NCBI GenBank assembly: GCA_964583985.1
Contig: CAZOYD010000064.1
Span: forward strand, 1-18,246
Origin: an uncultured archaeon
GTDB taxonomy: Archaea > Asgardarchaeota > Lokiarchaeia > Sigyniarchaeales > SOKP01
Reading direction: 5' to 3'
Length of the DNA stretch: 18,246 nucleotides
The notes beneath the pieces were generated by a model, which was not told the DNA's origin, searched no databases, and was given only the letters and a program-made list of their open reading frames with translations. Positions 875 to 15,769 of this stretch are shown here, in pieces. A program made the translations under genes and the position numbers. Numbering within the stretch: the first letter of the stretch is position 1; each line of letters begins with the position of its first letter.

Positions 875-1735
875 TCATCCTAATAATTGATTAAATGCTG
901 TCGTTAATTTACTTGGAAATTCTCCCATATAGGATTGTGGTTTGGTTATTAAGAGATAAAAATATGGTTCAAATAAACCATCGATAGTTGGACCGACTCC
1001 GGATTTAACAATATAAACCCAAACAGGTTTATTAGCTGAATAAAAAGATTGCCTATATATCCACTCTAGGGGGCTTATTTCTGGAAATACATCTATATTC
1101 CTCAGTAATGAATCAATATCTTTAATCTCCAACTTTTCTCCAAATATCATTATTGGGGAAAGATCAAAAGTAGTAATACAGATGGAAAGTAAGCCATAAT
1201 TTGCCATTTCACTAAAAAATGAAAGAGATAATTTATCGAGTTCGTTCTTGCAATTCATTACACGTGATCTTGCATTAAAATCAGTCAGAACTTCTAAAAT
1301 CTTATCTTCTTCATTTTGTAATATCTCCAATGCGGTTACCAAAGGTATTTTTGGAGCAATATATATATCATAAATCAATTCAATTTTTGCTTTTATAGAA
1401 TCATGTAAAAGGTAGGTTTCTGTTTGAGTTGTAATCAACACATCACCTTTATTTTTTAACTTATTACCTTTCTGTGTTGATTTCCAATCAGAAGAAAACT
1501 CAATTTTTTCGATCTTCTTATCAATATTTTTGGCAAATTCATATAATGCTGATACTAACCCAGCATTTAATTCAAACAAACCCGTGGGATCTATATTAAA
1601 ATTTTGATCCGTGATATTAGTTGAAAAATCAAAAAACCTTAAATATAAATTTACACCTTCAGGAGGCTTTTTTAATTCTATATGATAATAAGGAAAGCCT
1701 GTATTCGTGATTACTGAAAGTTCATAGAATGTCAT
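875..1735 (-). CDS. Hypothetical protein, putative longin-like N-terminal domain plus possible roadblock-like C-terminal domain (286 aa)
   Basis: Clean 286-aa ORF. N-terminal 'ELSVITNTGFPYY' followed by 'LNAGLVSALYEFAK' resembles the beta1-beta2/alpha1 pattern of longin-like domains common in Asgard archaea. The C-terminal half (YGLLSICITTFDLSPI...FYLLITKPQSYMGEF) has a roadblock/profilin-like pattern. Domain calls are by eye only. Confidence 0.55.
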   Translation of the reverse strand: MTFYELSVITNTGFPYYHIELKKPPEGVNLYLRFFDFSTNITDQNFNIDPTGLFELNAGLVSALYEFAKNIDKKIEKIEFSSDWKSTQKGNKLKNKGDVLITTQTETYLLHDSIKAKIELIYDIYIAPKIPLVTALEILQNEEDKILEVLTDFNARSRVMNCKNELDKLSLSFFSEMANYGLLSICITTFDLSPIMIFGEKLEIKDIDSLLRNIDVFPEISPLEWIYRQSFYSANKPVWVYIVKSGVGPTIDGLFEPYFYLLITKPQSYMGEFPSKLTTAFNQLLG

Positions 1736-1853: not shown

Positions 1854-4694
1854 TTATTTTATTATAATTGCTGGTCTCCCCGGTAAAGCTTGTTTTGCTT
1901 TTGGTTCCTCGGTTTTTTCTTCATCGATTATTTTGATATTACAATTATATCTTTTTTTTAGAATGGGAATAATTTCCATAAAGAATTCCAGTTCTTCCAG
2001 TGCGTTGATTGGTGCTTTATTGATTTTCCCCAGATTTTTCATCAGATTATTGACAATTTTAATTATCAATTTACTATGGGGCTTGAACTCTTCATTAGTC
2101 ATGAGAATTTTAATGATCTCTTTTTGTTCCTTGGTTTTTGTAACAATATCCATAAATTGTGAGTACAAGTGAAACTTCCATTGAACAGCCGTAATTAGTA
2201 TAATTTCAGTAACTCTTTCTTTTTTAATAATTAAAAGGATATGATTAATTGCATCAAATGTATCATGTAAAAGAGTCCACTTATAATCATTTATCGGAGT
2301 GAGGAGGGTTTCATCATATTCTGGCCATTTCGCTAAACTTAAAAATCCTTTTTTTCCATTAATTTGCCATAATTCTTCAGTCACGTGAGGAATTATTGGG
2401 TGTAACATTAAAATGAGGCTAATTTTACACGTTTTAAATATGGTGTCATTTACCCCTTCAACCTTGTATTTGTTTAATTCAGAAGCCAATTGGATTAGTT
2501 CGTTTATAGCATCTCTAATTTCTATTTTTTCCATGCGGGAAGATACAGTTTTTATTGTTTTATTCAGGTAATATTCAATGAGTCTATCGCGTATTTTTAC
2601 TTCTTTTCTTGTATCTTCAGGATTATCATAAATTAAAGAATATATGTTTTTTACAAATTTATAGGCAAAATCAACTCCTTCATTTGACCATTCTAATCCA
2701 GATTTTGGGCTTGCACCAAATAATATAAAAAACCGTGAAGCGTCTGCTCCATACTTTTCCATAATTCCAACGGGATCAATGGTATTACCTAAACTCTTGC
2801 TCATTTTTACGCTTTTTAAAATATACTCATTACCACATCTTTTGCATTTTTTATCGTGCATTTCTGCTTTCATGGCGAAAACACCACAATCTGGACAATA
2901 AGGATGGGCTTTATTAATCATTCCTTGGGTAAGCAACCTTTGAAAAGGTTCATCAAAAGAATGCATTCCTATGTCTCGTGCAACTTTTGTGAAGAATCTT
3001 GCATAAAGCAAATGTAATATTGCATGTTCAACTCCACCTATATACTGATCAACATTCATCCAATAATTTGCTATTTTTTTTGTATAAGGTAAATCTTTAG
3101 AATGGGGATCGCAAAATCTAAAAAAATACCAGGAACTATCTACAAAAGTATCCATCGTGTCCGTTTCTCTTTTAGCGGGTTTGTTACATTTTGGACATTG
3201 AACATTTAAAAAGCTTGTACTTGTTATTAAAGGATTTCCCTTTCCTGTAAATTCAACATCTTCGGGTAATTCTACAGGAAGTTGATCATAAGGCACTGGT
3301 AAAATTCCGCAATTATCGCAATAAATAATTGGTATTGGGCAACCCCAATATCGCTGCCTTGAAATTAACCAATCTCTCAGTCTGTAGTTAACTGTATTCA
3401 TTCCCATCTCTAATTCTTCGAGCTTTAATGTAATTGCTTTCATTGCATTTTTATTATCGATTCCATCAAACTCTTTAGAATTAACCAAAATGCCTTCGCC
3501 CTCATATGCACGAGTCATTTTGGTTATATTTATCTCATAATCAAACGGTTGAATGACAATTTTAATGGGGATGTTGTATTCACTTGCGAACTCAAAATCG
3601 CGCTGATCATGAGCAGGAACAGCCATTACCGCACCCGCGCCATATTCAAAAATCACGAAATTCCCCACATAAATCGGAATTTCATCATTAGTAAGAGGAT
3701 TAATAGCATTCTTCCCTATATACATCCCTTTTTTCTCAATTTCAATGTTAGTGCGTTCAAATTTATCTTGTTTTTGTACTTCTTGATAAAATTTGTCAAA
3801 TTCATTTTCATATTTTGTATTTATAACCCATTCTCTTATCCATGGATGTTCTGGAGCGAAAACCATAAAAGTTACTCCGAACAGAGTATCTGGTCTTGTA
3901 GTAAAGATATCAATTGTCCGTTCTTCACCAACAATTGGAAATTTAATTATAGTTCCTTCAGATCTTCCAATCCAATTTTTCTGCATAATTTTTACTTTTT
4001 CAGGCCAATCTAGGGTGTTTAATCCATCTAGTAATTCCTCTGCGTAGTTTCGTATCTTTAAAAACCATTGAGTAAGAAATTTTTGATCAACATCACTGTT
4101 ACATCTCCAACATTTCCCATTTAGTACTTGTTCATTCGCTAAAACCGTAGAGCAATCTGGACACCAGTTAACATATGATTCTTGACGATAGGCTAATCCT
4201 TTTTCAAGCATCTTAATAAAGAACCATTGATCCCATTTCTATTCATTAATGGAACTCATTAACAATTTATAGTAGTTTGGATCATGGCTGTAAATCATTC
4301 TAGTCCAATCATAAGACAAACCAATTCTTTTTTGTTGTTCCTGCATTTTTTTTATGTTTTTATTGGTCCAATCCTCGGGATTAGCACTATGATCAATAGC
4401 TGCGTTTTCTGCGGGTAATCCAAAGCTTTTATGGTATTTCCCACATTGAGAAATACTATCATAGCCCATAGGATATAATACATTATACCCGTTCATTCGT
4501 TTAAATCGAGCTACTGAATCTCCTATTGTATAATTTCGAAGGTGCCCCATATGTAAACTTCCAGAAGGATATGGATACATTTCTAAGATATAATATTTTT
4601 TCATATTTGGATCTTCTTTAACTTCAAAAATCCGTTTATCATTCCACAAATCTTGCCATTTCTTCTCAATTAATTTATGATCATATTCTATCAT
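1854..4694 (-). CDS. leuS: Leucyl-tRNA synthetase, intron-containing: complement(join(1854..4236,4267..4427,4458..4694)), 926 aa after splicing
   Basis: ORFs 4239..4694 and 1854..4211 are in the same frame and separated by one TAG. Motifs: [14 protein letters not shown] (HIGH), [15 protein letters not shown]1 CPDC...CWRC, CP1 editing FTTRPDT and [60 protein letters not shown] (2793-2807). Removing the two 30-nt BHB inserts gives 237+161+2383 = 2781 nt of uninterrupted frame. Confidence 0.95.
4237..4266 (-). other. BHB-type intron 2 in leuS mRNA, 30 nt, contains the in-frame UAG
   Basis: mRNA CUA-CUAU-AA^A-UUGUUAAUG-AGUUC-CAUUAAUGA-AUAG-AA^A-UGG. Exon helix CUA/UGG, 4-bp central helix CUAU/AUAG, two AAA bulges, 9-bp intron stem with a 5-nt loop. 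Excision converts [16 protein letters not shown] to YYKWDQW. Confidence 0.92.
4428..4457 (-). other. BHB-type (tRNA-splicing-endonuclease) intron 1 in leuS mRNA, 30 nt, in-frame, no stop
   Basis: mRNA GGGC-UAUG-AU^A-GUAUUUCUCA-AUG-UGGGAAAUAC-CAUA-AA^A-GCUU. Exon helix GGGC/GCUU, 4-bp central helix UAUG/CAUA, 3-nt bulges AUA and AAA, 10-bp intron stem with a 3-nt loop. Excision converts [18 protein letters not shown] to GYDSFGLP. Confidence 0.9.
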
Positions 4695-4783: not shown

Positions 4784-4937
4784 AATGTTGTTCTTCATAA
4801 TTTTTATTTTTTGGACATCTTAGCATTTATCTTTAAAGTGTTAAATAAACTCATTGCAATAGTTATATCATTTTTTTTTTGATCGTATGAGAATTCTCAG
4901 AAAAAAACTTATCTTTTCAAAATCATTAGGAAATTTA

Positions 4938-5939
4938 ATGACGATAGATAAAATTAGAGTATCAATCGGGAGTGCTTCAGTTCTTGGACTTTATGACACT
5001 ATACGATTCAAAGATCCTCCAACTACTTGCTATATCATGACTTATAAACAAGGCCATTGCGATGCAAATTGTGGTTTCTGTCCACAAGCGAGAGAGTCGG
5101 TGGGATCTACTGAAAAACTTTCTCGTGTCAATTGGCCAGAATTTTCTTTTAAGGATTTTCTTACGAGGTTGAGTTATCTAGTACCAAATAAACGTTTCAA
5201 GAGAATATGCATTCAAACTCTTAATTATTCCAATAACTTTCACGAATTACTTGAAATTATTTCAGAAATTACCAGAATAACCGATATACCTATTTCTGTA
5301 GCAAGCCCTCCTATCACAAAAGAAAATATGCGGGAATTAAAAAATTTGGGGATCGATAGAATTGGGATTGCATTAGATGCTTCAACACAAGAAATATTTA
5401 ATAATGTGAAAGGAAAAAATGCAAATGGGCCTTATTCATGGGAGAAACATTTTGCATCTTTAGAAGATGCTTTAAATGTATTCAATGATGGGAAAGTAAC
5501 AACTCACTTAATTGTTGGACTGGGTGAAACTTCAAAAGAGATTTTAGAATTAATCCAAAAATTAAACGATCTGAAAATTCATATAGGTCTTTTTGCTTTT
5601 ACTCCTATTAAGGGAACAAAGCTTGAAAATCTAGATAGTCCAGAATTATTATATTTCCGAAAAATGCAATTAGGATTATACCTCATTATCAAGCAAAATA
5701 AACGCTTAAAAGATTTTACATTTAATTCTAAGGGTGATATTGTTAAATATAATATTAATAAAAAAGAATTATGGGATATTATTGATACTTCAAATGTCAT
5801 GTTAACTTCAGGATGTCCTGGATGTAATCGACCCTATTATACCTCACGCCCTTCAGGACCAATTTATAATTACCCAAGAGAGTTAACCGAAATTGAGAAA
5901 CAGGAAAATTATAATGCTTTATTAAAATTTGTTAATTAA
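4938..5939 (+). CDS. lipS2: Radical SAM sulfur-insertion protein of the archaeal-type two-component lipoyl synthase (LipS2-like)
   Basis: CxxxCxxC (CDANCGFC) and the C-terminal TSGCPGCNRP motif, matching the TxGCPxC(N/D)RP signature of LipS2. Adjacent to a lipoate ligase and a LipS1-like gene. Start placed at ATG 4938 (MTIDKIRVSIGS); the ORF track's upstream ATG at 4887 is also possible. Confidence 0.85.
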   Translation: MTIDKIRVSIGSASVLGLYDTIRFKDPPTTCYIMTYKQGHCDANCGFCPQARESVGSTEKLSRVNWPEFSFKDFLTRLSYLVPNKRFKRICIQTLNYSNNFHELLEIISEITRITDIPISVASPPITKENMRELKNLGIDRIGIALDASTQEIFNNVKGKNANGPYSWEKHFASLEDALNVFNDGKVTTHLIVGLGETSKEILELIQKLNDLKIHIGLFAFTPIKGTKLENLDSPELLYFRKMQLGLYLIIKQNKRLKDFTFNSKGDIVKYNINKKELWDIIDTSNVMLTSGCPGCNRPYYTSRPSGPIYNYPRELTEIEKQENYNALLKFVN

Positions 5940-5956
5940 TTGTAATTTACACCATC

Positions 5957-6736
5957 ATGAATGATTGGAGATTTATCCCTTTAGAAATTTATAATGGTTA
6001 TTGGAACATGGCTTTGGACGAGGCGATATTAACATTATCAATAGAAAATAAATCTCCAAACACTTTAAGATTTTATAAATGGGATCCCTCGACAATTTCA
6101 ATAGGACAAAATCAAAGCCTTTCTTCAGAAGTTGATATTGATATCGCTCAAAATAAAGGGTTTGACGTAGTTAGAAGAATCACAGGAGGTGGCGCTGTAT
6201 TTCATGATAGGGATCGAGAAATAACTTATTCCATTATCTGTCCTATCAAATTATTAGAGGAGTTGCATGCTTATAGAGTACTTGAACAATTTGAGATTAT
6301 TGAAATGGGAATAATCTCTGGTTTAAAGAATTATGGTTTAGAATCAGAACCTGGAATCATACATTGCCCTGCTCTTTTTCTAGAAGGTAAAAAATTTTCT
6401 GGAAATGCCCAAATAAGAAAAAAGGGATATATTCTTCAACATGGTACCATCTTACTAGAATTAAATGCAGAACTCATGTATTCCGTCTTAAAAGCGCCAA
6501 ATAATGTATCTAAATCAAGAATGGTTAAATCTGTCTATACAAAATGCATTGGAATAAAAGGGCACTTACCTGATTGGAACGAAGATAAATTTTTATTATC
6601 GTTAAAACAAGGGTTTGAAAATACTTTGAAAATTAAATTAAAAGAGGGGCAAATTTCTGAAGAGGAAATTAAATTAGCCAAAAAGTTAATGAAAGAGAAA
6701 TATTCAAATGAAAAATGGTTAAAAAAATATGAATGA
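5957..6736 (+). CDS. lplA: Lipoate-protein ligase / octanoyltransferase catalytic domain (LplA/LipM family, 259 aa)
   Basis: NMALDEA, LRFYKW, VVRRITGGGAVFHD, KKFSGNAQ and LQHGTIL motifs of the BPL/LplA/LipB fold. No C-terminal accessory domain. Confidence 0.9.
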   Translation: MNDWRFIPLEIYNGYWNMALDEAILTLSIENKSPNTLRFYKWDPSTISIGQNQSLSSEVDIDIAQNKGFDVVRRITGGGAVFHDRDREITYSIICPIKLLEELHAYRVLEQFEIIEMGIISGLKNYGLESEPGIIHCPALFLEGKKFSGNAQIRKKGYILQHGTILLELNAELMYSVLKAPNNVSKSRMVKSVYTKCIGIKGHLPDWNEDKFLLSLKQGFENTLKIKLKEGQISEEEIKLAKKLMKEKYSNEKWLKKYE

Positions 6737-7787
6737 GAGTATAATAACGAAAATAACAGAAAATCGAATGAAATGGTCAGATTATGAAGAAATCGTTTCA
6801 GATAACTTCCAACAGATTGATTCTATCTTAAAAATTGCATATAACTTGAAAGTACAATTTTTTGGTGAACGTTTAAAAGTATACGTTCCAAATTATAATT
6901 TTCCTGCTATTAGTATAACTGGGAGTGATTGTAACTTAAACTGTGAACACTGTAATAAAAAATATCTAGAAAATATGAAACCCCTCCTCACTAATAGTGA
7001 ATTAAAAGATTTTTTAATCAATCTTCATAAGAACGGTGGTGTGGGAGCTTTGATTTCAGGAGGGTGTGATCCTAATGGTGCTGTACCTTTAAAACAGTTT
7101 TTAAATACTATTGAAGAAGTCAAACAACAAACTGATTTAATAATCAATCTTCATACTGGTTTAATTGATGAAGATACTGCTTGCGATTTAAAAGAGACTA
7201 CAGCAGATATTATATCTTTCGATATTAATATTGATGAGAAAATAATAAAAAATATATACCACCTTGATAAAACAGTAGAAGATTACAGAAAATCATTGGA
7301 ACTTCTTCAAAAAAATCATCTGAATATAATTCCCCATATTTGTTTTGGATTGTATTATGGAAAAATTCACGAAGAATTAAAATCAATTAAATTTATTAAA
7401 GAAAATTTTCCTAATCCCTCTTTAATCGTAGTAATTGTACTTATTCCTCCAAAAGACTCAAAATTTGAGACTCCAAAACCTGAGGATATTTCCAAATTAA
7501 TAGCGGTAACAAGATTGGTATTTCCTCAGACTGAAATTTCCTTAGGATGCATGAGACCTCGTGGAAGTCTAAAAAGGGAGATTGAACAATTAGCTTTAAA
7601 AGCAGGAATTACAAGAATTGAAATCCCCTCTAAGGCTACTTTACAATGGATGAAGAAATATGATCCAAATGTTTCATTCGAGTTTTATTCTGCTTGTTGT
7701 GCTATACCCGAAAAATATGAAAGGAAAGCCATAAGTAGAGAGGAAGATATAAAATCATATAAATTATTTTTAAGTGGTGAAAAATAG
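6729..7787 (+). CDS. lipS1: Radical SAM protein of the archaeal-type two-component lipoyl synthase (LipS1-like, 352 aa)
   Basis: CxxxCxxC (CNLNCEHC), LISGG, LGCMRP (GC(M/A)R motif) and C-terminal SACCA (CC motif). Overlaps the ligase stop codon by 8 nt. Confidence 0.85.
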   Translation: MNESIITKITENRMKWSDYEEIVSDNFQQIDSILKIAYNLKVQFFGERLKVYVPNYNFPAISITGSDCNLNCEHCNKKYLENMKPLLTNSELKDFLINLHKNGGVGALISGGCDPNGAVPLKQFLNTIEEVKQQTDLIINLHTGLIDEDTACDLKETTADIISFDINIDEKIIKNIYHLDKTVEDYRKSLELLQKNHLNIIPHICFGLYYGKIHEELKSIKFIKENFPNPSLIVVIVLIPPKDSKFETPKPEDISKLIAVTRLVFPQTEISLGCMRPRGSLKREIEQLALKAGITRIEIPSKATLQWMKKYDPNVSFEFYSACCAIPEKYERKAISREEDIKSYKLFLSGEK

Positions 7788-7789
7788 AT

Positions 7790-9199
7790 TTGAGTGAATT
7801 TATTAATCTAATTGCATTAAAAGGAATACCAAAAATAAAACCGGGAGATAATTTAGCAAAGATCATAATTGAATCTGCAAATAAATCAAATATAATTTTA
7901 GAAGAAGGGAATATACTTGTTATTGCTCAAAGTATTGTTTCAAAAAGTCGTGGTTACCTAGTCGATCTAAATACAATTGAGCCCAGCGATTATGCTAAAA
8001 TGTTATATAAGAGTATGATACCTTTAGCAATGAAGGAAAATATTCCTGTGAAAGATCCGCAATTAATACAATTAATTTTAGATGAATCAAATAAATTGAT
8101 TCGAACAAGCCACGTTATGATTGTTGAGACAAAACATGGATTTATTTGTGCCAATGCAGGAATTGATAGATCAAATGTAGAAGGAGAAAATATTGTAACT
8201 TTATTACCGGATAATTCTGATGAAGAAGCAAAGAAAATTACTGACGAACTCAAGAAAATAATTGGGAAAAATTTAGCGGTTATTATTTCAGATTCATTTG
8301 GAAGACCTTTTAGAAGGGGTGCTGTTGGAGTGGCAATAGGACTTTCAGGGATAGATGCAATATTGGATAAGAGAGGTAAATATGATCTTTATGGGAAAGA
8401 ATTGAAAAGCACGATCGTTGGACAAGTAGATAATCTTGCTTCTGCTGCTCAACTCATAATGGGGGAAGCAGATGAGGGATACCCCGTTGTATTAATTAAG
8501 GGATATGAGTTTGAATTAAATGATCAGGCATCTATTAGTTCCATTATACGTGAAAGAAATTCAGATTTATTTAGAGAGAAAGATAGCGATAATGAGATTA
8601 TAAAAACACTAAAGTCAAGGAGGAGTTATAAGTTAGGTTTTTCTTCTAGAGAAGTAGATGAAGAGCTTATTAGAGAATGTATAAACTTATCAACCTGGGC
8701 TCCAAGTGCTCATAATGGACAATTTTGGAGATATGTAATTTTAAAGAAAGGTGCTAGAAGAAATAAATTAATAGAGAGGATGAATGCAAAATTCAGGAAC
8801 GATTTAATAAGTGAAGGTCAATCAGAATCGATCATCAATTTAAAGATTGAAAAAACACGAAATCAATTCTTAAATTCACCTCATTTGATATTACTTTGTT
8901 TGGATAAGCAAGATTTAGAATCATATGAAGATGAAGAACGCAATTTAAATGAATTAATTATGGGAATTCAGAGTATAAGTTCTTCTGCAACTTATTTACT
9001 AATAGCCTTAGAAACTAAAAATTTGTCTTCTTGTTGGTATTGTGCACCATTATTTGCTAAGGAAATTATCAAGGAAGAATTAAATCTTCCAAAATCATAT
9101 GTTCCTATGGCTTTTTTTACAATAGGATATCCCAAAGATGTTCCAAAAACACCGTTTCGCAAGAATTTAGAGGATATTATTTACAAAATTGAAGATTAA
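7790..9199 (+). CDS. cofE: Coenzyme F420-0:gamma-glutamyl ligase fused to a C-terminal nitroreductase-fold domain (FbiB-like architecture, 469 aa)
   Basis: N-terminal CofE motifs (IPKIKPGDNL, IVSKS, HGFICANAGIDRSN, ISDSFGRPFRRG, DNLASAAQLIMGEADEGYPVVLIKG). From about 8594 a nitroreductase domain (KSRRSYK, WAPSAHNGQFWRY, SCWYCAP, IGYP). TTG start preceded by GGTGA. Confidence 0.9.
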   Translation: MSEFINLIALKGIPKIKPGDNLAKIIIESANKSNIILEEGNILVIAQSIVSKSRGYLVDLNTIEPSDYAKMLYKSMIPLAMKENIPVKDPQLIQLILDESNKLIRTSHVMIVETKHGFICANAGIDRSNVEGENIVTLLPDNSDEEAKKITDELKKIIGKNLAVIISDSFGRPFRRGAVGVAIGLSGIDAILDKRGKYDLYGKELKSTIVGQVDNLASAAQLIMGEADEGYPVVLIKGYEFELNDQASISSIIRERNSDLFREKDSDNEIIKTLKSRRSYKLGFSSREVDEELIRECINLSTWAPSAHNGQFWRYVILKKGARRNKLIERMNAKFRNDLISEGQSESIINLKIEKTRNQFLNSPHLILLCLDKQDLESYEDEERNLNELIMGIQSISSSATYLLIALETKNLSSCWYCAPLFAKEIIKEELNLPKSYVPMAFFTIGYPKDVPKTPFRKNLEDIIYKIED

Positions 9200-9212
9200 A
9201 TTGAGATTTGAA

Positions 9213-10142
9213 ATGAGTGAAGATTTTTATACTATACTGGCAGGAGGGGTGGGTGCCGCAAAATTTATTCAAGGATTAGTAAAAGTAGTAGATCCAGGCA
9301 AATTAAAAATAATCATAAATACAGGTGATGATATTGAATTATTTGGTCTTACTATTTGTCCAGATATCGATATAATAACATATAGTATTGCGGAAGTCGT
9401 TGATAAGGAAAAAGGGTGGGGTTTTGAAAATGATACTTTCAATTGTTTGAGCATAATAAAAAATTATTATGACGATGGATGGTTTAATTTGGGGGATAAA
9501 GATTTAGCAACACATATTTATCGAACAGATTTATACCGTAAAGGTTTTACAAAAGCTCAAATTACATCTAAAATATGTAAAAAATTAGGAATAAAAGCAG
9601 ATCTCATTCCAATGAGTAATGAATCAGTGGAAACATATATTGAAACTCCCTTGGGGAAAATGCATTTTGAAGAATATTACATAAAACATAAATGTGAGCC
9701 CGATATTTTAGGTATATCCTTCAAGGGTTCTGAAAAAGCTAATCCTATAGTAGGTGTCATAGATTATATCAAAAAGGCAAGAAAAGTAATAATATGCCCA
9801 TCTAATCCAATAGTTTCAATTGGAACAATCCTGAGCGTCAAGGATATAAAAAATACGCTAATAAGTGTAAAGGATAATGTGTATGCCATTAGTCCTATTA
9901 TAGAAGGATCCTCAGTAAAAGGTCCAGCAGATAAAATGTTAAACTTTTTTGGTTATGAGGTTTCATGCGTTGGTGTTGCTAATTTCTACAGGGGAATGAT
10001 AGGTCATTTCATTATTGATCTTAAAGATCAATCATCGAAACAACAGATTGAGGAATTGGGCATAAAGACATATTGTTTTGATACCCTAATGACGAATATA
10101 AAAAAAAAGGAAAATCTGGCGAGAGAAGTGATGAGCCTATGA
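9213..10142 (+). CDS. cofD: 2-phospho-L-lactate/phosphoenolpyruvate transferase (CofD/FbiA), F420 biosynthesis
   Basis: LAGGVGAAKF, NTGDD, ICPDID, GWG, WFNLGDKDLATHIYRT, HFEEYY, ICPSNPIVSIG and VKGPADKM. Start placed at ATG 9213 rather than TTG 9189. Confidence 0.93.
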   Translation: MSEDFYTILAGGVGAAKFIQGLVKVVDPGKLKIIINTGDDIELFGLTICPDIDIITYSIAEVVDKEKGWGFENDTFNCLSIIKNYYDDGWFNLGDKDLATHIYRTDLYRKGFTKAQITSKICKKLGIKADLIPMSNESVETYIETPLGKMHFEEYYIKHKCEPDILGISFKGSEKANPIVGVIDYIKKARKVIICPSNPIVSIGTILSVKDIKNTLISVKDNVYAISPIIEGSSVKGPADKMLNFFGYEVSCVGVANFYRGMIGHFIIDLKDQSSKQQIEELGIKTYCFDTLMTNIKKKENLAREVMSL

Positions 10143-11576: not shown

Positions 11577-12905
11577 TTAATATGCACTCCCCTTTTTCTT
11601 TGCATCTATATACGTTTTTAGTACATTTGTCATCATTTCGTCTGGTCCCGTTGTGATGAGACTAATTCCTAAATTACGAAATTCCCGTCTAAGGATTAGT
11701 ATATGTTCCATCATTTCCTCACTTATTGCTTCAGCTAATGCTTTATCTGTAGAGGATAAATCGATTTCATGAATTTCGAACCAAGGGCTAAATGGATTAA
11801 TGACAATAATAGAATGATTAAATGTAACAAGTTTTCTCATTGCTTGTGATATTTCTTTTACATTTCCTTCTAGATCAGATATTAAAAATATTAAACTCCT
11901 TTTTTGAAACCGTCTAACGAAGTAATCGATAGCTTCAACAATTCTACTCTTTCCTTGAGGTTTTATCCTAGCAACAAAATCTAGAACTTGATAAAAATGA
12001 TCATCTCCGCTTCCTGGTTTTAAAAATTGCAGATTTTTCTTATCTGAATATGAAAATATTCCTACGTTGTCTCTTCGTGTGAGAGCAACTTTGGTTAATA
12101 ACATGCATGATCGAATGGCATATTCAAATTTTGTGTTTTCTATCGCGCCTCCAGCCATGCTATTAGATGAATCAACTAAAATCATAACAGTTACGTCTCG
12201 TTCACTTTCAAATTCCCTCACTATTAATTTTTGAGTCCGTGCACTTGCCTTCCAGTCAATTAATCGAAATTGATCCCCAAAAACATACTTTCTCATTGCA
12301 TGAAATTCGGATCCAAGACCTATTTGTTTCGATCTTTGTATGCCATAATTTAACTGAAGAGAGCGTTTGGATCCAAGAATTTCAATTCTTTTTATATCTT
12401 CATATGGAGGATATATTAAGATATCTGAAACACTATCAGGGATTATTCTTTCAACAGAATTAAATCCTAATCGATCTTTAATGGTTACCGAAAGTGGTCC
12501 AAGGGGATATTCTCCTCGTACTTTGGGTTCAAGAACATAAGAGAATTTAATTAATGCTCTAGGACCTATACGTGTAGATATGAAATTTTCGCCAAGTACT
12601 AATCGAAAAAGTTGAGGATTATAATAATCTCTAATTTCTATGAGGTCAAAACTACCTTTTCCTGTGTTCTTAATTATGACCTTTATATGAACAAAATCAT
12701 CTTTAAATACCTTTTCTTTCTCAAGTTCTCTATGGACTTGTAATTCTTCTATGTTCATTTGCCAATAAAAAAGCGGTAAGCTAATAATAGTACTAAATAA
12801 TAAGAGAATTGCAAAGAAAATAAAAAAGTAATTTACAAATGCAAATCCCGCAGTTAGGAAGAAAACTGCGAATAAAATCAATGTTCTACCTTTTCCACCT
12901 AGCAT
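11577..12905 (-). CDS. DUF58 family protein with vWA (MIDAS) domain and N-terminal membrane anchor (442 aa)
   Basis: N-terminal TM pair, RGEYPLGP...DRLG, GSEFHAMRKYVFGDQFRLIDWKASAR...LIVREFESE, MIDAS DSSNS, and LIFLISDL. Directly downstream of moxR. Confidence 0.9.
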   Translation of the reverse strand: MLGGKGRTLILFAVFFLTAGFAFVNYFFIFFAILLLFSTIISLPLFYWQMNIEELQVHRELEKEKVFKDDFVHIKVIIKNTGKGSFDLIEIRDYYNPQLFRLVLGENFISTRIGPRALIKFSYVLEPKVRGEYPLGPLSVTIKDRLGFNSVERIIPDSVSDILIYPPYEDIKRIEILGSKRSLQLNYGIQRSKQIGLGSEFHAMRKYVFGDQFRLIDWKASARTQKLIVREFESERDVTVMILVDSSNSMAGGAIENTKFEYAIRSCMLLTKVALTRRDNVGIFSYSDKKNLQFLKPGSGDDHFYQVLDFVARIKPQGKSRIVEAIDYFVRRFQKRSLIFLISDLEGNVKEISQAMRKLVTFNHSIIVINPFSPWFEIHEIDLSSTDKALAEAISEEMMEHILILRREFRNLGISLITTGPDEMMTNVLKTYIDAKKKGSAY

Positions 12906-12985
12906 TTACATCTCCAACATGGAATTTAAGATTTTACCGCTTTTCAATTGAATTACATTATTTTATTATTTTTTTAAAAAAAAAT

Positions 12986-13966
12986 TTAAATTGGAACTGG
13001 AATATCTTCTACTATTGATCGAAGCACCGATTTTGCATCTAAACCTTCAAGTTCACTTTCTGCTTTTAACATTATTCGATGGTTAAGAGCAGGTATGATG
13101 AGGGCTCTAACATCATCCGGTGTGACATAAGTACGTCCAAGAATTGCTGCTCGTGCTTTAGCGGTTTTCATTATCGTAAGTGAGGCTCGAGGTCCACACC
13201 CTAATGCAATTTGTGGATGATTTCGTGTTTTAATTATTATGTCCCTAACATATTTCAGGATTCTTTCATCAATATAGACCAGATTCATAATTTTTTGAGC
13301 TGCCAACAGTTCTTCAGCATTGGTGATGACATCTAGTGAGGGCATATCTCCTGATATTTGTCTCCTCATAATTTCTACCTCTTCATCTATTTCGGGATAA
13401 TCTAGCCAAAGTTTAAATAAGAAACGGTCTATTTGTGCTTCTGGTAAGGGGTAAGTACCTTCCATTTCAACGGGGTTCTCTGTTGCAATGACAATAAAAG
13501 GTTTAACTAATTCAAGCGTTTGACCTTCAATAGTTACTTGTCGTTCAGCCATAGCTTCTAAAAGTGCTGATTGAGTTTTTGGAGCACTTCTATTTATTTC
13601 ATCAGCTAGTACAACATTGGCAAAAATCGGACCTTTTTGAAGGACAAATGCACCTTCATTCTGATCAAATATTTTTGTACCTGTTATATCAGAAGGTAAT
13701 AAATCGGGGGTAAATTGAACGCGTTTGAAAGAGATCCCTAAAGTTTTGGCAAAAGATTTAGCCATGACAGTTTTACCCAAACCTGGAACACCTTCAAGGA
13801 GAACGTGTCCATTAACCAAGAGAGCTATGAAAAGTTGCTGAAGAATTTCTCCATTACCGACAATCACTCGACTTACTTCACTTAAAACCTCTTGTGCTAT
13901 TGATCTAATAGAACTTACATCCAATTCTTCTCTTTCATAATACTTTGCTTTATCTGGAGCTTCCAT
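12986..13966 (-). CDS. moxR: MoxR family AAA+ ATPase (326 aa)
   Basis: Walker A GVPGLGKT, RVQFTPDLLPSDITG, Walker B VLADEINR, QSALLEAMAERQVT and NPVEMEGTYPLPEAQIDRF. Confidence 0.96.
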   Translation of the reverse strand: MEAPDKAKYYEREELDVSSIRSIAQEVLSEVSRVIVGNGEILQQLFIALLVNGHVLLEGVPGLGKTVMAKSFAKTLGISFKRVQFTPDLLPSDITGTKIFDQNEGAFVLQKGPIFANVVLADEINRSAPKTQSALLEAMAERQVTIEGQTLELVKPFIVIATENPVEMEGTYPLPEAQIDRFLFKLWLDYPEIDEEVEIMRRQISGDMPSLDVITNAEELLAAQKIMNLVYIDERILKYVRDIIIKTRNHPQIALGCGPRASLTIMKTAKARAAILGRTYVTPDDVRALIIPALNHRIMLKAESELEGLDAKSVLRSIVEDIPVPI

Positions 13967-14035
13967 TTTAATTCACTTCTTTTTTTTTATTTTTATTAAT
14001 TTGATTTTTAATTATATTTGGTTATCTTAATTTTT

Positions 14036-15769
14036 TTAAATATTCTTTACAACCCATTCCATTTCAAAGAAGAGGTTTTCAAAATCTTCTTCATTCTTGA
14101 CTTTATTTTTGCCTTCTTTTATGAGAATTATTCGATCCATAAATCGACTAATTCTTCTAATTTTTAATTTTGTAATATTTTGTTCTTTATTAATGACCAT
14201 ATCGATAACATTTTTAGTGGTAATCTTTTTCCCTCTCAACAAATTGTTCAATTTTCTTTCAAGTCTCCTGTATAGAAGCGTTAAAGCTTTCCCATAGTTT
14301 TGTTTTTCTCGATACCATTGTATTTTTTCAGCAAAATATGAGGAAGTCCTAAATTTTTCTTGTTCTTCGATCTGATCTTGTTTCTCTTCTTTTTTTTTTT
14401 GTTTTTTATCATCTTTTTTTGGTAAGTATTTTCTTAAGGTATAAATCGCTAATAATGGATAGATCCATGCCGTTATCGGATTTGTTGATAGATGTATAAC
14501 ATATTGAATGATAAATCCATATATTCCTACTGAAGTTAAATCCCTTGAATATTCTGGCCGTATATGAGCTTCATCAAATACCACTACCCAATCTTGTTTG
14601 GGTTGTCCATAGGTTAGCCAATCAATTATATTAATCCCAAATTGTCTATTATCATACAATTCAATTAATTCATTATCAAATAAACTAGCATCAGAAGAAA
14701 CGAATATACGACTATTACCAGTATCTTTTGCCATAAAAACACCTTGAGAATAACCACCTAAAGGCCATCGTGTTGGAAATCCAGGAATCGATGCTGCAAT
14801 GAAGCTAATATCAACATAATCATCTTCAAATTTATACATGTGATCATTATTTTTATCTACATATCCATATTCAGTTGAAGACCCCACTAAATCCCAACCA
14901 AAATAATCAATGAAAGGACCTCCAAGAACAGTTGTTGCTTGTGATAAAATTACTTTATTAATTCCATTTGCTATTGGATGGGTTGTGAATGATTCAATGA
15001 CAGGAAAATCCGTTCTTGTATCATAAGACGCGTTATCTCTTAGTGTACCGCTTGGAAATATGGTTACGGGAATTTTTCCCGCTACATCAGGATCAAGAGC
15101 TCCTGCAATAAATAATTCCCATAATAGAGTGCTCGTACTTCCATGATCATGGCAGATTAATAATGAATTTGTTGTATTGGTATCGAAAAAATTAATGAAA
15201 TAAGGGATTTCGAAGATAGCGTTATAATATTGATTTGGTCCAAGAAGAACTAACAAAATAGATTTATTTAATCGTTCTGTTGCACTCAAACTTGATTGAA
15301 TTGACATTATTTCATATCCTTGTGCTTCTATCGTATTTCGAAATGAAGATGATCCATTCCAATCATAGTTATAGATTGAAAAGTTTTGATCATTCTCACC
15401 GCGATCAAATATCGATCCAAATAATGGGACAAAAAGTAATACGAACACGACTAAAAATAACGCATTCTTGTAGATTGATCCTGTTTTGGCTTTTTTCCTA
15501 GATTGTAATTCTCGTGATTTTTGAACCGTGGTTTTTCTAATGAAAATAAATAATCCTATCCCAGTAAATATTGATGCAATGTAGCATAATAATGGAAAAT
15601 AGTTTATAAAAATCGGAAGATCTGAACCAGGATTATTTTCTTGATAAATAATAACAAAATTTTCAAGAAAAATGCCATAAAATAAGAAGAAGATCACGAA
15701 AAATGAATATAAAATCCCCTTTGATAAATTCACGTTCTTCTCTGACACTTTTCCAACACTTGACATCAT
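14036..15769 (-). CDS. Membrane protein with extracytoplasmic DUF4350/GldG-like domain and basic cytoplasmic C-terminal helical domain (577 aa)
   Basis: Three N-terminal TM segments, FSIYNYDWNGSSSF, SRIFVSSDASLFDN...DNRQF and VVVFDEAH, a C-terminal TM, then Y(x)5A(x)2Y...YRRL. These are typical of DUF4350 proteins found next to MoxR genes. Confidence 0.65.
   Translation of the reverse strand: MMSSVGKVSEKNVNLSKGILYSFFVIFFLFYGIFLENFVIIYQENNPGSDLPIFINYFPLLCYIASIFTGIGLFIFIRKTTVQKSRELQSRKKAKTGSIYKNALFLVVFVLLFVPLFGSIFDRGENDQNFSIYNYDWNGSSSFRNTIEAQGYEIMSIQSSLSATERLNKSILLVLLGPNQYYNAIFEIPYFINFFDTNTTNSLLICHDHGSTSTLLWELFIAGALDPDVAGKIPVTIFPSGTLRDNASYDTRTDFPVIESFTTHPIANGINKVILSQATTVLGGPFIDYFGWDLVGSSTEYGYVDKNNDHMYKFEDDYVDISFIAASIPGFPTRWPLGGYSQGVFMAKDTGNSRIFVSSDASLFDNELIELYDNRQFGINIIDWLTYGQPKQDWVVVFDEAHIRPEYSRDLTSVGIYGFIIQYVIHLSTNPITAWIYPLLAIYTLRKYLPKKDDKKQKKKEEKQDQIEEQEKFRTSSYFAEKIQWYREKQNYGKALTLLYRRLERKLNNLLRGKKITTKNVIDMVINKEQNITKLKIRRISRFMDRIILIKEGKNKVKNEEDFENLFFEMEWVVKNI

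Follow-up and report, generated by a model that had tools for sequence, protein, structure and literature searches.

A 30-nucleotide insert that interrupts a leucyl-tRNA synthetase (LeuRS) gene, leuS, in an Asgard archaeal genome is very probably excised from the mRNA by the enzymes of tRNA splicing, a reading to which we assign a probability of about 0.87. The insert has bulge-helix-bulge (BHB) geometry in an exact register, relatives carry empty alleles at its position, and the genes of the enzymes are present in the genome; cutting of the leuS pre-mRNA by the tRNA splicing endonuclease (EndA) and its ligation by RtcB are what we infer from these features. The value of the case lies in the system of mRNA mini-introns to which the insert belongs and in the excess of stop codons within them, and the UAG in the central helix of the leuS insert, proposed as a switch in an earlier note on this DNA, is its least special part.

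The leuS gene occupies positions 4694..1854 on the minus strand of the window, the whole stretch of 18,246 nucleotides that was analysed (contig C64 of a 3.8-Mb genome, G000). It shows as two open reading frames of 151 and 785 aa, the split that had been foreseen for automated gene callers. Removal of two 30-nt inserts (4457..4428 and 4266..4237) yields a 926-aa product in which the HIGH motif, as HMGH, lies at residue 48 and KMSKS lies at residue 610, and the earlier note was correct that an unspliced fragment, 151 aa long or 141 aa if only intron 1 is removed, would lack KMSKS. The LeuRS scores as bacterial-type with an archaeal-like tail, and a chimeric LeuRS of Natrialba magadii (PMC4005665) likewise joins a bacterial-type core to an archaeal-type tail. 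The features of the gene, all on the minus strand, are as follows.

4458..4694, minus strand: leuS exon 1, 79 codons, with the HIGH motif
4428..4457, minus strand: leuS intron 1, 30 nt, phase 0, strict BHB, no in-frame stop in G000
4267..4427, minus strand: leuS exon 2, 161 nt
4269..4272, minus strand: exon strand CUAU of the 4-bp central helix of intron 2, from fold and pairing
4266..4268, minus strand: 5′ bulge AAA, predicted cut between 4267 and 4266
4237..4266, minus strand: leuS intron 2, 30 nt, phase 2, BHB type, also in genome G009 (26/30 identical)
4243..4265, minus strand: intron hairpin with a 9-bp stem (4265-4257 with 4251-4243) and a 5-nt loop, from the fold
4239..4242, minus strand: intron strand AUAG of the central helix, holding the in-frame UAG at 4241-4239
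4236..4238, minus strand: 3′ bulge AAA, predicted cut between 4237 and 4236
1854..4236, minus strand: leuS exon 3, with the editing domain, KMSKS, and the anticodon-binding and C-terminal domains

Alignment to the Thermus thermophilus LeuRS (1h3n) shows exactly two 10-residue gaps, at the two leuS inserts, and residues 60-200 contain an indel in none of 120 homologues. All 926 exon codons are intact, with 84% identity to close relatives; a protein search returned no near-identical spliced LeuRS, the best match standing at 77%. Because a 10-residue insertion would fall in an indel-free core, we consider that removal is needed with or without a stop codon.

The identification of intron 2 as a BHB intron, proposed at the outset, is upheld by its geometry, by the uniqueness of its register and by comparison with shuffled inserts. 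The central helix CUAU/AUAG is Watson-Crick throughout and lies between two 3-nt bulges on opposite strands, and if each bulge is cut behind its second base, exactly 4266..4237 is excised. There are 25 possible 30-nt excisions at this site, five of which restore the motif YYxWDQW, and the one starting at 4266 is the sole protein-compatible register that combines four of four central pairs with the 9-bp stem; the canonical register and fold together occur with P=2e-5 when the insert is shuffled. As had also been claimed, splicing recovers a conserved LeuRS motif, YYKWDQW, the same as in the empty alleles. The exon-exon helix beyond the 3′ bulge comprises 3 bp (CUA/UGG) and is weaker in G009. 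The surrounding 80-nt region folds with z=-3.9, and the minimum-energy form keeps the central helix, the 5′ bulge and the stem while placing the outer helix further out (-11.6 kcal/mol, as against -6.5 kcal/mol for the strict BHB form). With only two copies known, in G000 and G009, intron 2 shows no compensatory change, and the G009 copy has lost one pair in the stem and another in the outer helix. There was no meaningful Rfam match and no second copy in the genome. A group I, group II or homing-endonuclease intron was ruled out, the insert being 30 nt long with neither a ribozyme core nor an ORF.

The genome encodes two EndA paralogues, one catalytic and one structural, together with RtcB. 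The catalytic paralogue keeps what we take to be the catalytic Tyr, His and Lys positions, and the second lacks the catalytic and loop residues, which fits a structural subunit; a two-subunit EndA is common in Asgard genomes. The nearest relative of the catalytic paralogue is the A. pernix EndA, and a Lys and an Arg align to K44/R46 of the loop that has been linked to broad specificity (PMC3241643). ARAGORN predicts only 22 tRNA genes in the genome, of which most contain introns and several have doubtful anticodons; since these predictions are few and intron-rich, tRNA introns probably hide further tRNA genes. On the molecular level, the leuS pre-mRNA would fold locally into the BHB, the two-subunit endonuclease would cut both 3-nt bulges behind their second base and RtcB would join the exons, giving, with intron 1 also out, the 926-aa LeuRS. 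Ribosomes on uncut intron would terminate inside it and make neither an enzyme with an insertion in its active site nor a frameshifted tail.

Intron 1 was found in 12 copies with lengths of 29, 30 and 31 nt; as some of these orthologues are frameshifting, the inserts are not read as protein. No two-sided covariation was seen in intron 1. An in-frame stop is present in 11 of the 12 copies, and the G000 copy is the sole exception, with TGT in the loop where the others mostly have TAA or TGA, so that the only stop in the G000 leuS introns is the one in intron 2. Intron 2 has a far narrower spread: leuS of this type occurs in 141 of 160 class genomes, and the 794-codon frame, with the stop at intron 2, is confined to G000 and G009. 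A pattern search of the 160 class genomes and the genome collection, which is independent of the stop but requires exact flanks, returned G009 alone, its other matches looking like chance. A set of 80 metagenome leuS loci added one copy of intron 1 and none of intron 2. Site 2 is empty in all but two of the leuS loci aligned, and by a quick tree the closest relatives, G006 and G022, both lack intron 2. Synonymous-site identity between the leuS genes of G000 and the distant G009 (L025) is 55% overall and 78-79% near both introns, with 32-67% for intron-free alleles, a pattern that is only suggestive of lateral movement of an intron-bearing tract or of repeated loss. In another genome (L283, G081) leuS near 600-690 is missing the codons that surround the HIGH motif and has a frame shift, probably an assembly error.

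A second, archaeal-type LeuRS is encoded on contig C55 of G000 (L296:3-1697), so the intron-bearing leuS cannot be called the sole LeuRS copy. This paralogue has KMGKS and, at the active-site motif, TAIMH, where a GKDL-type motif is usual; its HIGH motif is intact in relatives. Searches did not recover it from G009, which is 85% complete, nor from 7 of 23 genus members. The intron-bearing type is the LeuRS copy found across the class, and the archaeal-type paralogue is patchy in the genus.

The remainder of the window offers context for the gene. Directly downstream of leuS, and adjoining it in many relatives, is a 286-aa gene (875-1735, minus strand) with no NCBIfam match. On the other side, at 4887-7787 (plus strand), LipS2, lipoate ligase and LipS1 form a cluster, of a known type for lipoate assembly, that is transcribed away from leuS. 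By eye, a CofE-nitroreductase fusion and then CofD, both of F420 synthesis, follow at 7790-10142 (plus strand), and a MoxR-type AAA ATPase, a DUF58/vWA-like partner and membrane proteins lie at 11577-15769 (minus strand). A promoter scan was uninformative.

The UAG itself does lie inside the central helix, the TAG at 4241-4239 falling within the AUAG that pairs with CUAU, but the view that the splice signal incorporates this stop in some special way is not supported. The exon strand CUAU encodes Tyr-Tyr and can pair only with the four strands A/G-U-A/G-G, which in this phase read UAG or UGG; the place of the UAG in the central helix follows from Watson-Crick pairing with exon CUA in phase 2, at a site coding for Tyr-Tyr-Lys. 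Shuffled intron-2 inserts contain an in-frame stop in 74% of cases, so the stop alone is not beyond chance, and only one of the 21 candidate inserts of the genome, leuS intron 2, has a stop in its central helix. The tie between the UAG and the splice signal is real but incidental, and, given splicing, the position of the UAG in the helix is likely a by-product of where the intron sits. Nor would the UAG be what makes splicing obligatory, as the insert sits in an indel-free core and 13 of the 21 inserts shift the frame anyway.

These 21 candidate inserts, 28-38 nt long, interrupt 16 genes. A scan detected those in an AIR-synthase-like (AIRS-like) gene (C123), a vWA gene, mevalonate kinase and a thiolase; further hosts that were located are rnhB, rubredoxin, rpoA1, an EF-1alpha-like gene, a Rab-like GTPase, gyrB, cdhD, uL11, SCP2 and additional thiolases. 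In every located gene removal of the insert gives an open junction, in most with a recognisable family motif. The central helix has four of four pairs in 17 inserts and three of four in the other 4, and the first base of the bulge is A in 18/21 and 19/21 for the two bulges, in a set that was curated and may therefore have been selected for BHB shape and visible stops. A motif-free comparison of orthologues at about 170 loci yielded 32 well-aligned inserts, 31 of them forming a 4/4 central helix in a register that homology allows, and the remaining one a protein indel. It confirmed the inserts in leuS, the AIRS-like gene, rnhB and rpoA1; those elsewhere are less firm candidates, identified by motif restoration, among them the mevalonate kinase insert, which was not recovered in the orthologue comparison. 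The AIRS-like insert type is found in 7 genomes with four compensatory pairs, and its covariation score was reached in 0 of 500 shuffles.

Scans of the whole genome for BHB motifs from sequence alone gave as many matches to decoy geometries as to the real one, so such scans are no basis for an intron count. Filtering by homology, against paralogues and 45% of the complete genome G043, left few inserts only, namely that in the vWA gene, one in a mis-sized thiolase and three already known, and one more homology-filtered scan of the genome returned no insert. At the same codon of rpoA1, very different inserts of 30 and 31 nt are found in L323 (G032) and at G000:C2:24787..24757; both have the BHB shape and an early in-frame stop, and they represent either separate gains or deep divergence. 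An MvhD-like gene (G000:C13, about 36480-36600, minus strand) has about 10 additional codons ahead of its TGA (Sec) codon, possibly another insert.

Stop codons in these inserts are in frame with the host gene more often than expected. An in-frame stop is present in 19 of the 21 inserts (12.6 expected, P=0.002) and in 12 of the 13 frameshifting ones (7.6 expected, P=0.0085), whose interruption of the gene would be noticed even if they held no stop, and most lie no more than 12 nt from the 5′ cut. When the other two frames serve as the control, the first 12 nt contain 14 stops in frame against 3 and 6 (P=0.003), or 10 against 2 and 4 among the frameshifting inserts (P=0.007), and the position of the stop tracks the reading frame in all three phases; total stops by frame (24/14/18) do not differ significantly (p=0.087). 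In-frame stops are kept in orthologues, although these are kin and not independent (leuS intron 1 11/12, rnhB 9/9, AIRS-like 7/7, rpoA1 2/2), while out-of-frame hairpin stops appear and disappear among them. Selection probably favours the presence of some in-frame stop in these introns, a view we hold with limited confidence. This suggests a general, constitutive safeguard across the inserts of the genome with no switch specific to leuS; the quality-control role advanced earlier finds some statistical support across these inserts.

The alternatives to constitutive excision differ in what they require of the RNA and of the protein. Regulated splicing of intron 2, in which the UAG provides the off state and LeuRS levels are set by the spliced fraction, is the on/off switch of the earlier note. 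Negative regulation has been proposed, not shown, for the cbf5 intron (PMC2738675). Unspliced leuS RNA cannot give active enzyme, and the second, archaeal-type LeuRS makes control of one copy conceivable; yet the intron-2 break occurs in 2 of 141 leuS genes and is absent from the closest relatives, similar inserts hit unrelated housekeeping genes, and no alternative fold or sensor was seen. In addition, the tRNA endonuclease has no known condition-specific activity, and a regulated switch is unsupported and unlikely. A dead gene replaced by the archaeal-type paralogue, whose HIGH motif is intact in relatives, or a heterodimer made from the two ORFs would dispense with splicing, but both are very improbable: the exon codons are intact and well conserved, the insert is itself conserved between distant genomes, and the paralogue, with its KMGKS and altered active-site motif, was not recovered from G009 or from some of the genus members searched. 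For a split enzyme, the break would fall inside the Rossmann fold and a start at the next ATG (4211) would drop WDQWFFIK, and such inserts also interrupt single-copy genes such as rpoA1, which encodes an RNA polymerase subunit, and uL11.

Two further explanations leave the RNA uncut. In programmed ribosomal bypassing of the T4 gene 60 kind, the ribosome would take off at AAA and land on AAA 30 nt downstream. Both G000 leuS inserts are indeed flanked by matching codons (AAA/AAA and AGT/AGC), and have a hairpin and a stop, though none in frame in intron 1; the codon match is, however, lost in G009 intron 2 (AAA/AGA) and in most intron-1 orthologues, and matched codon pairs flank 5 of the 21 inserts compared with a 4/4 central helix in 17, which makes bypassing a highly unlikely explanation. 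Amber readthrough, by pyrrolysine or a suppressor, would produce a LeuRS with a 10-residue insertion, and the insert is in frame with one TAG in G000. Against this, the genome has no PylS above the cut-off, TAG is the terminator of 37 of 173 aligned genes, G009 intron 2 contains two TAGs, the second of them in its first codon, and the site is free of indels in 120/120 homologues, so that readthrough is barely credible. Excision of intron 2 by the tRNA-splicing enzymes thus remains our preferred reading.

Extended beyond leuS, the same reasoning leads to a broader proposal, for which we see even odds: that mRNA splicing by the tRNA endonuclease is routine in Loki-type Asgard archaea, that each genome would carry tens of 28-38-nt introns in core genes that are still being gained, lost and moved, and that a selected in-frame stop just inside most of them serves as a translation-level safeguard. 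If true, mRNA splicing would be routine in the gene expression of a lineage close to eukaryotes, touching RNA polymerase, uL11, gyrase and RNase HII, and many of the 'pseudogenes' and marker genes that look truncated in Asgard MAGs would be intact. The excess of early in-frame stops also offers a testable idea of the way in which splicing coexists with ribosomes loading on nascent RNA. The proposed safeguard would further represent an archaeal counterpart, in the closest prokaryotic relatives of eukaryotes, of the way eukaryotes control retained introns.

Eukaryotic spliceosomal introns of length 3n are enriched in stop codons, so that retained introns end translation early, and this enrichment is coupled to nonsense-mediated decay. 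In contrast to these, the stop excess described here extends to frameshifting inserts and to the stretch close to the 5′ cut, and there is no known decay pathway for such archaeal intron-bearing mRNAs. The literature searched, outside of which most subscription papers lie, held no report of several BHB introns within coding regions of Asgard archaea, and endonuclease splicing of a coding sequence in archaea is confirmed only for cbf5. A 2026 preprint on Asgard tRNA introns (bioRxiv 10.64898/2026.10.13.758758) describes the same motif, a two-subunit EndA and repeated gains in Asgard lineages, but concerns tRNA genes only, the word 'mRNA' being absent from its text. The BHB intron in the 5′ UTR of Haloferax HVO_1309 is likewise an mRNA substrate of the tRNA splicing endonuclease; it differs in lying in an untranslated leader, in its length of 46 nt and in leaving the reading frame unaffected, and its authors named cbf5 in 2020 as the only other mRNA case (PMC7714728). 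The cbf5 pre-mRNA of Desulfurococcales and Sulfolobales (Watanabe 2002; Yokobori 2009, PMC2738675) is the closest parallel, with a short BHB intron in coding sequence (16-44 nt in cbf5, 30 nt in leuS) at a conserved catalytic region, cutting by a heterotetrameric EndA (predicted for leuS), some copies that keep the frame and others that do not, and frequent mis-annotation. Whereas cbf5 presents a single gene with a single old intron whose splicing has been shown, leuS presents two introns in one gene, among some 21 candidates that one Asgard genome carries in 16 genes, with a patchy distribution in the genus and splicing that is predicted.
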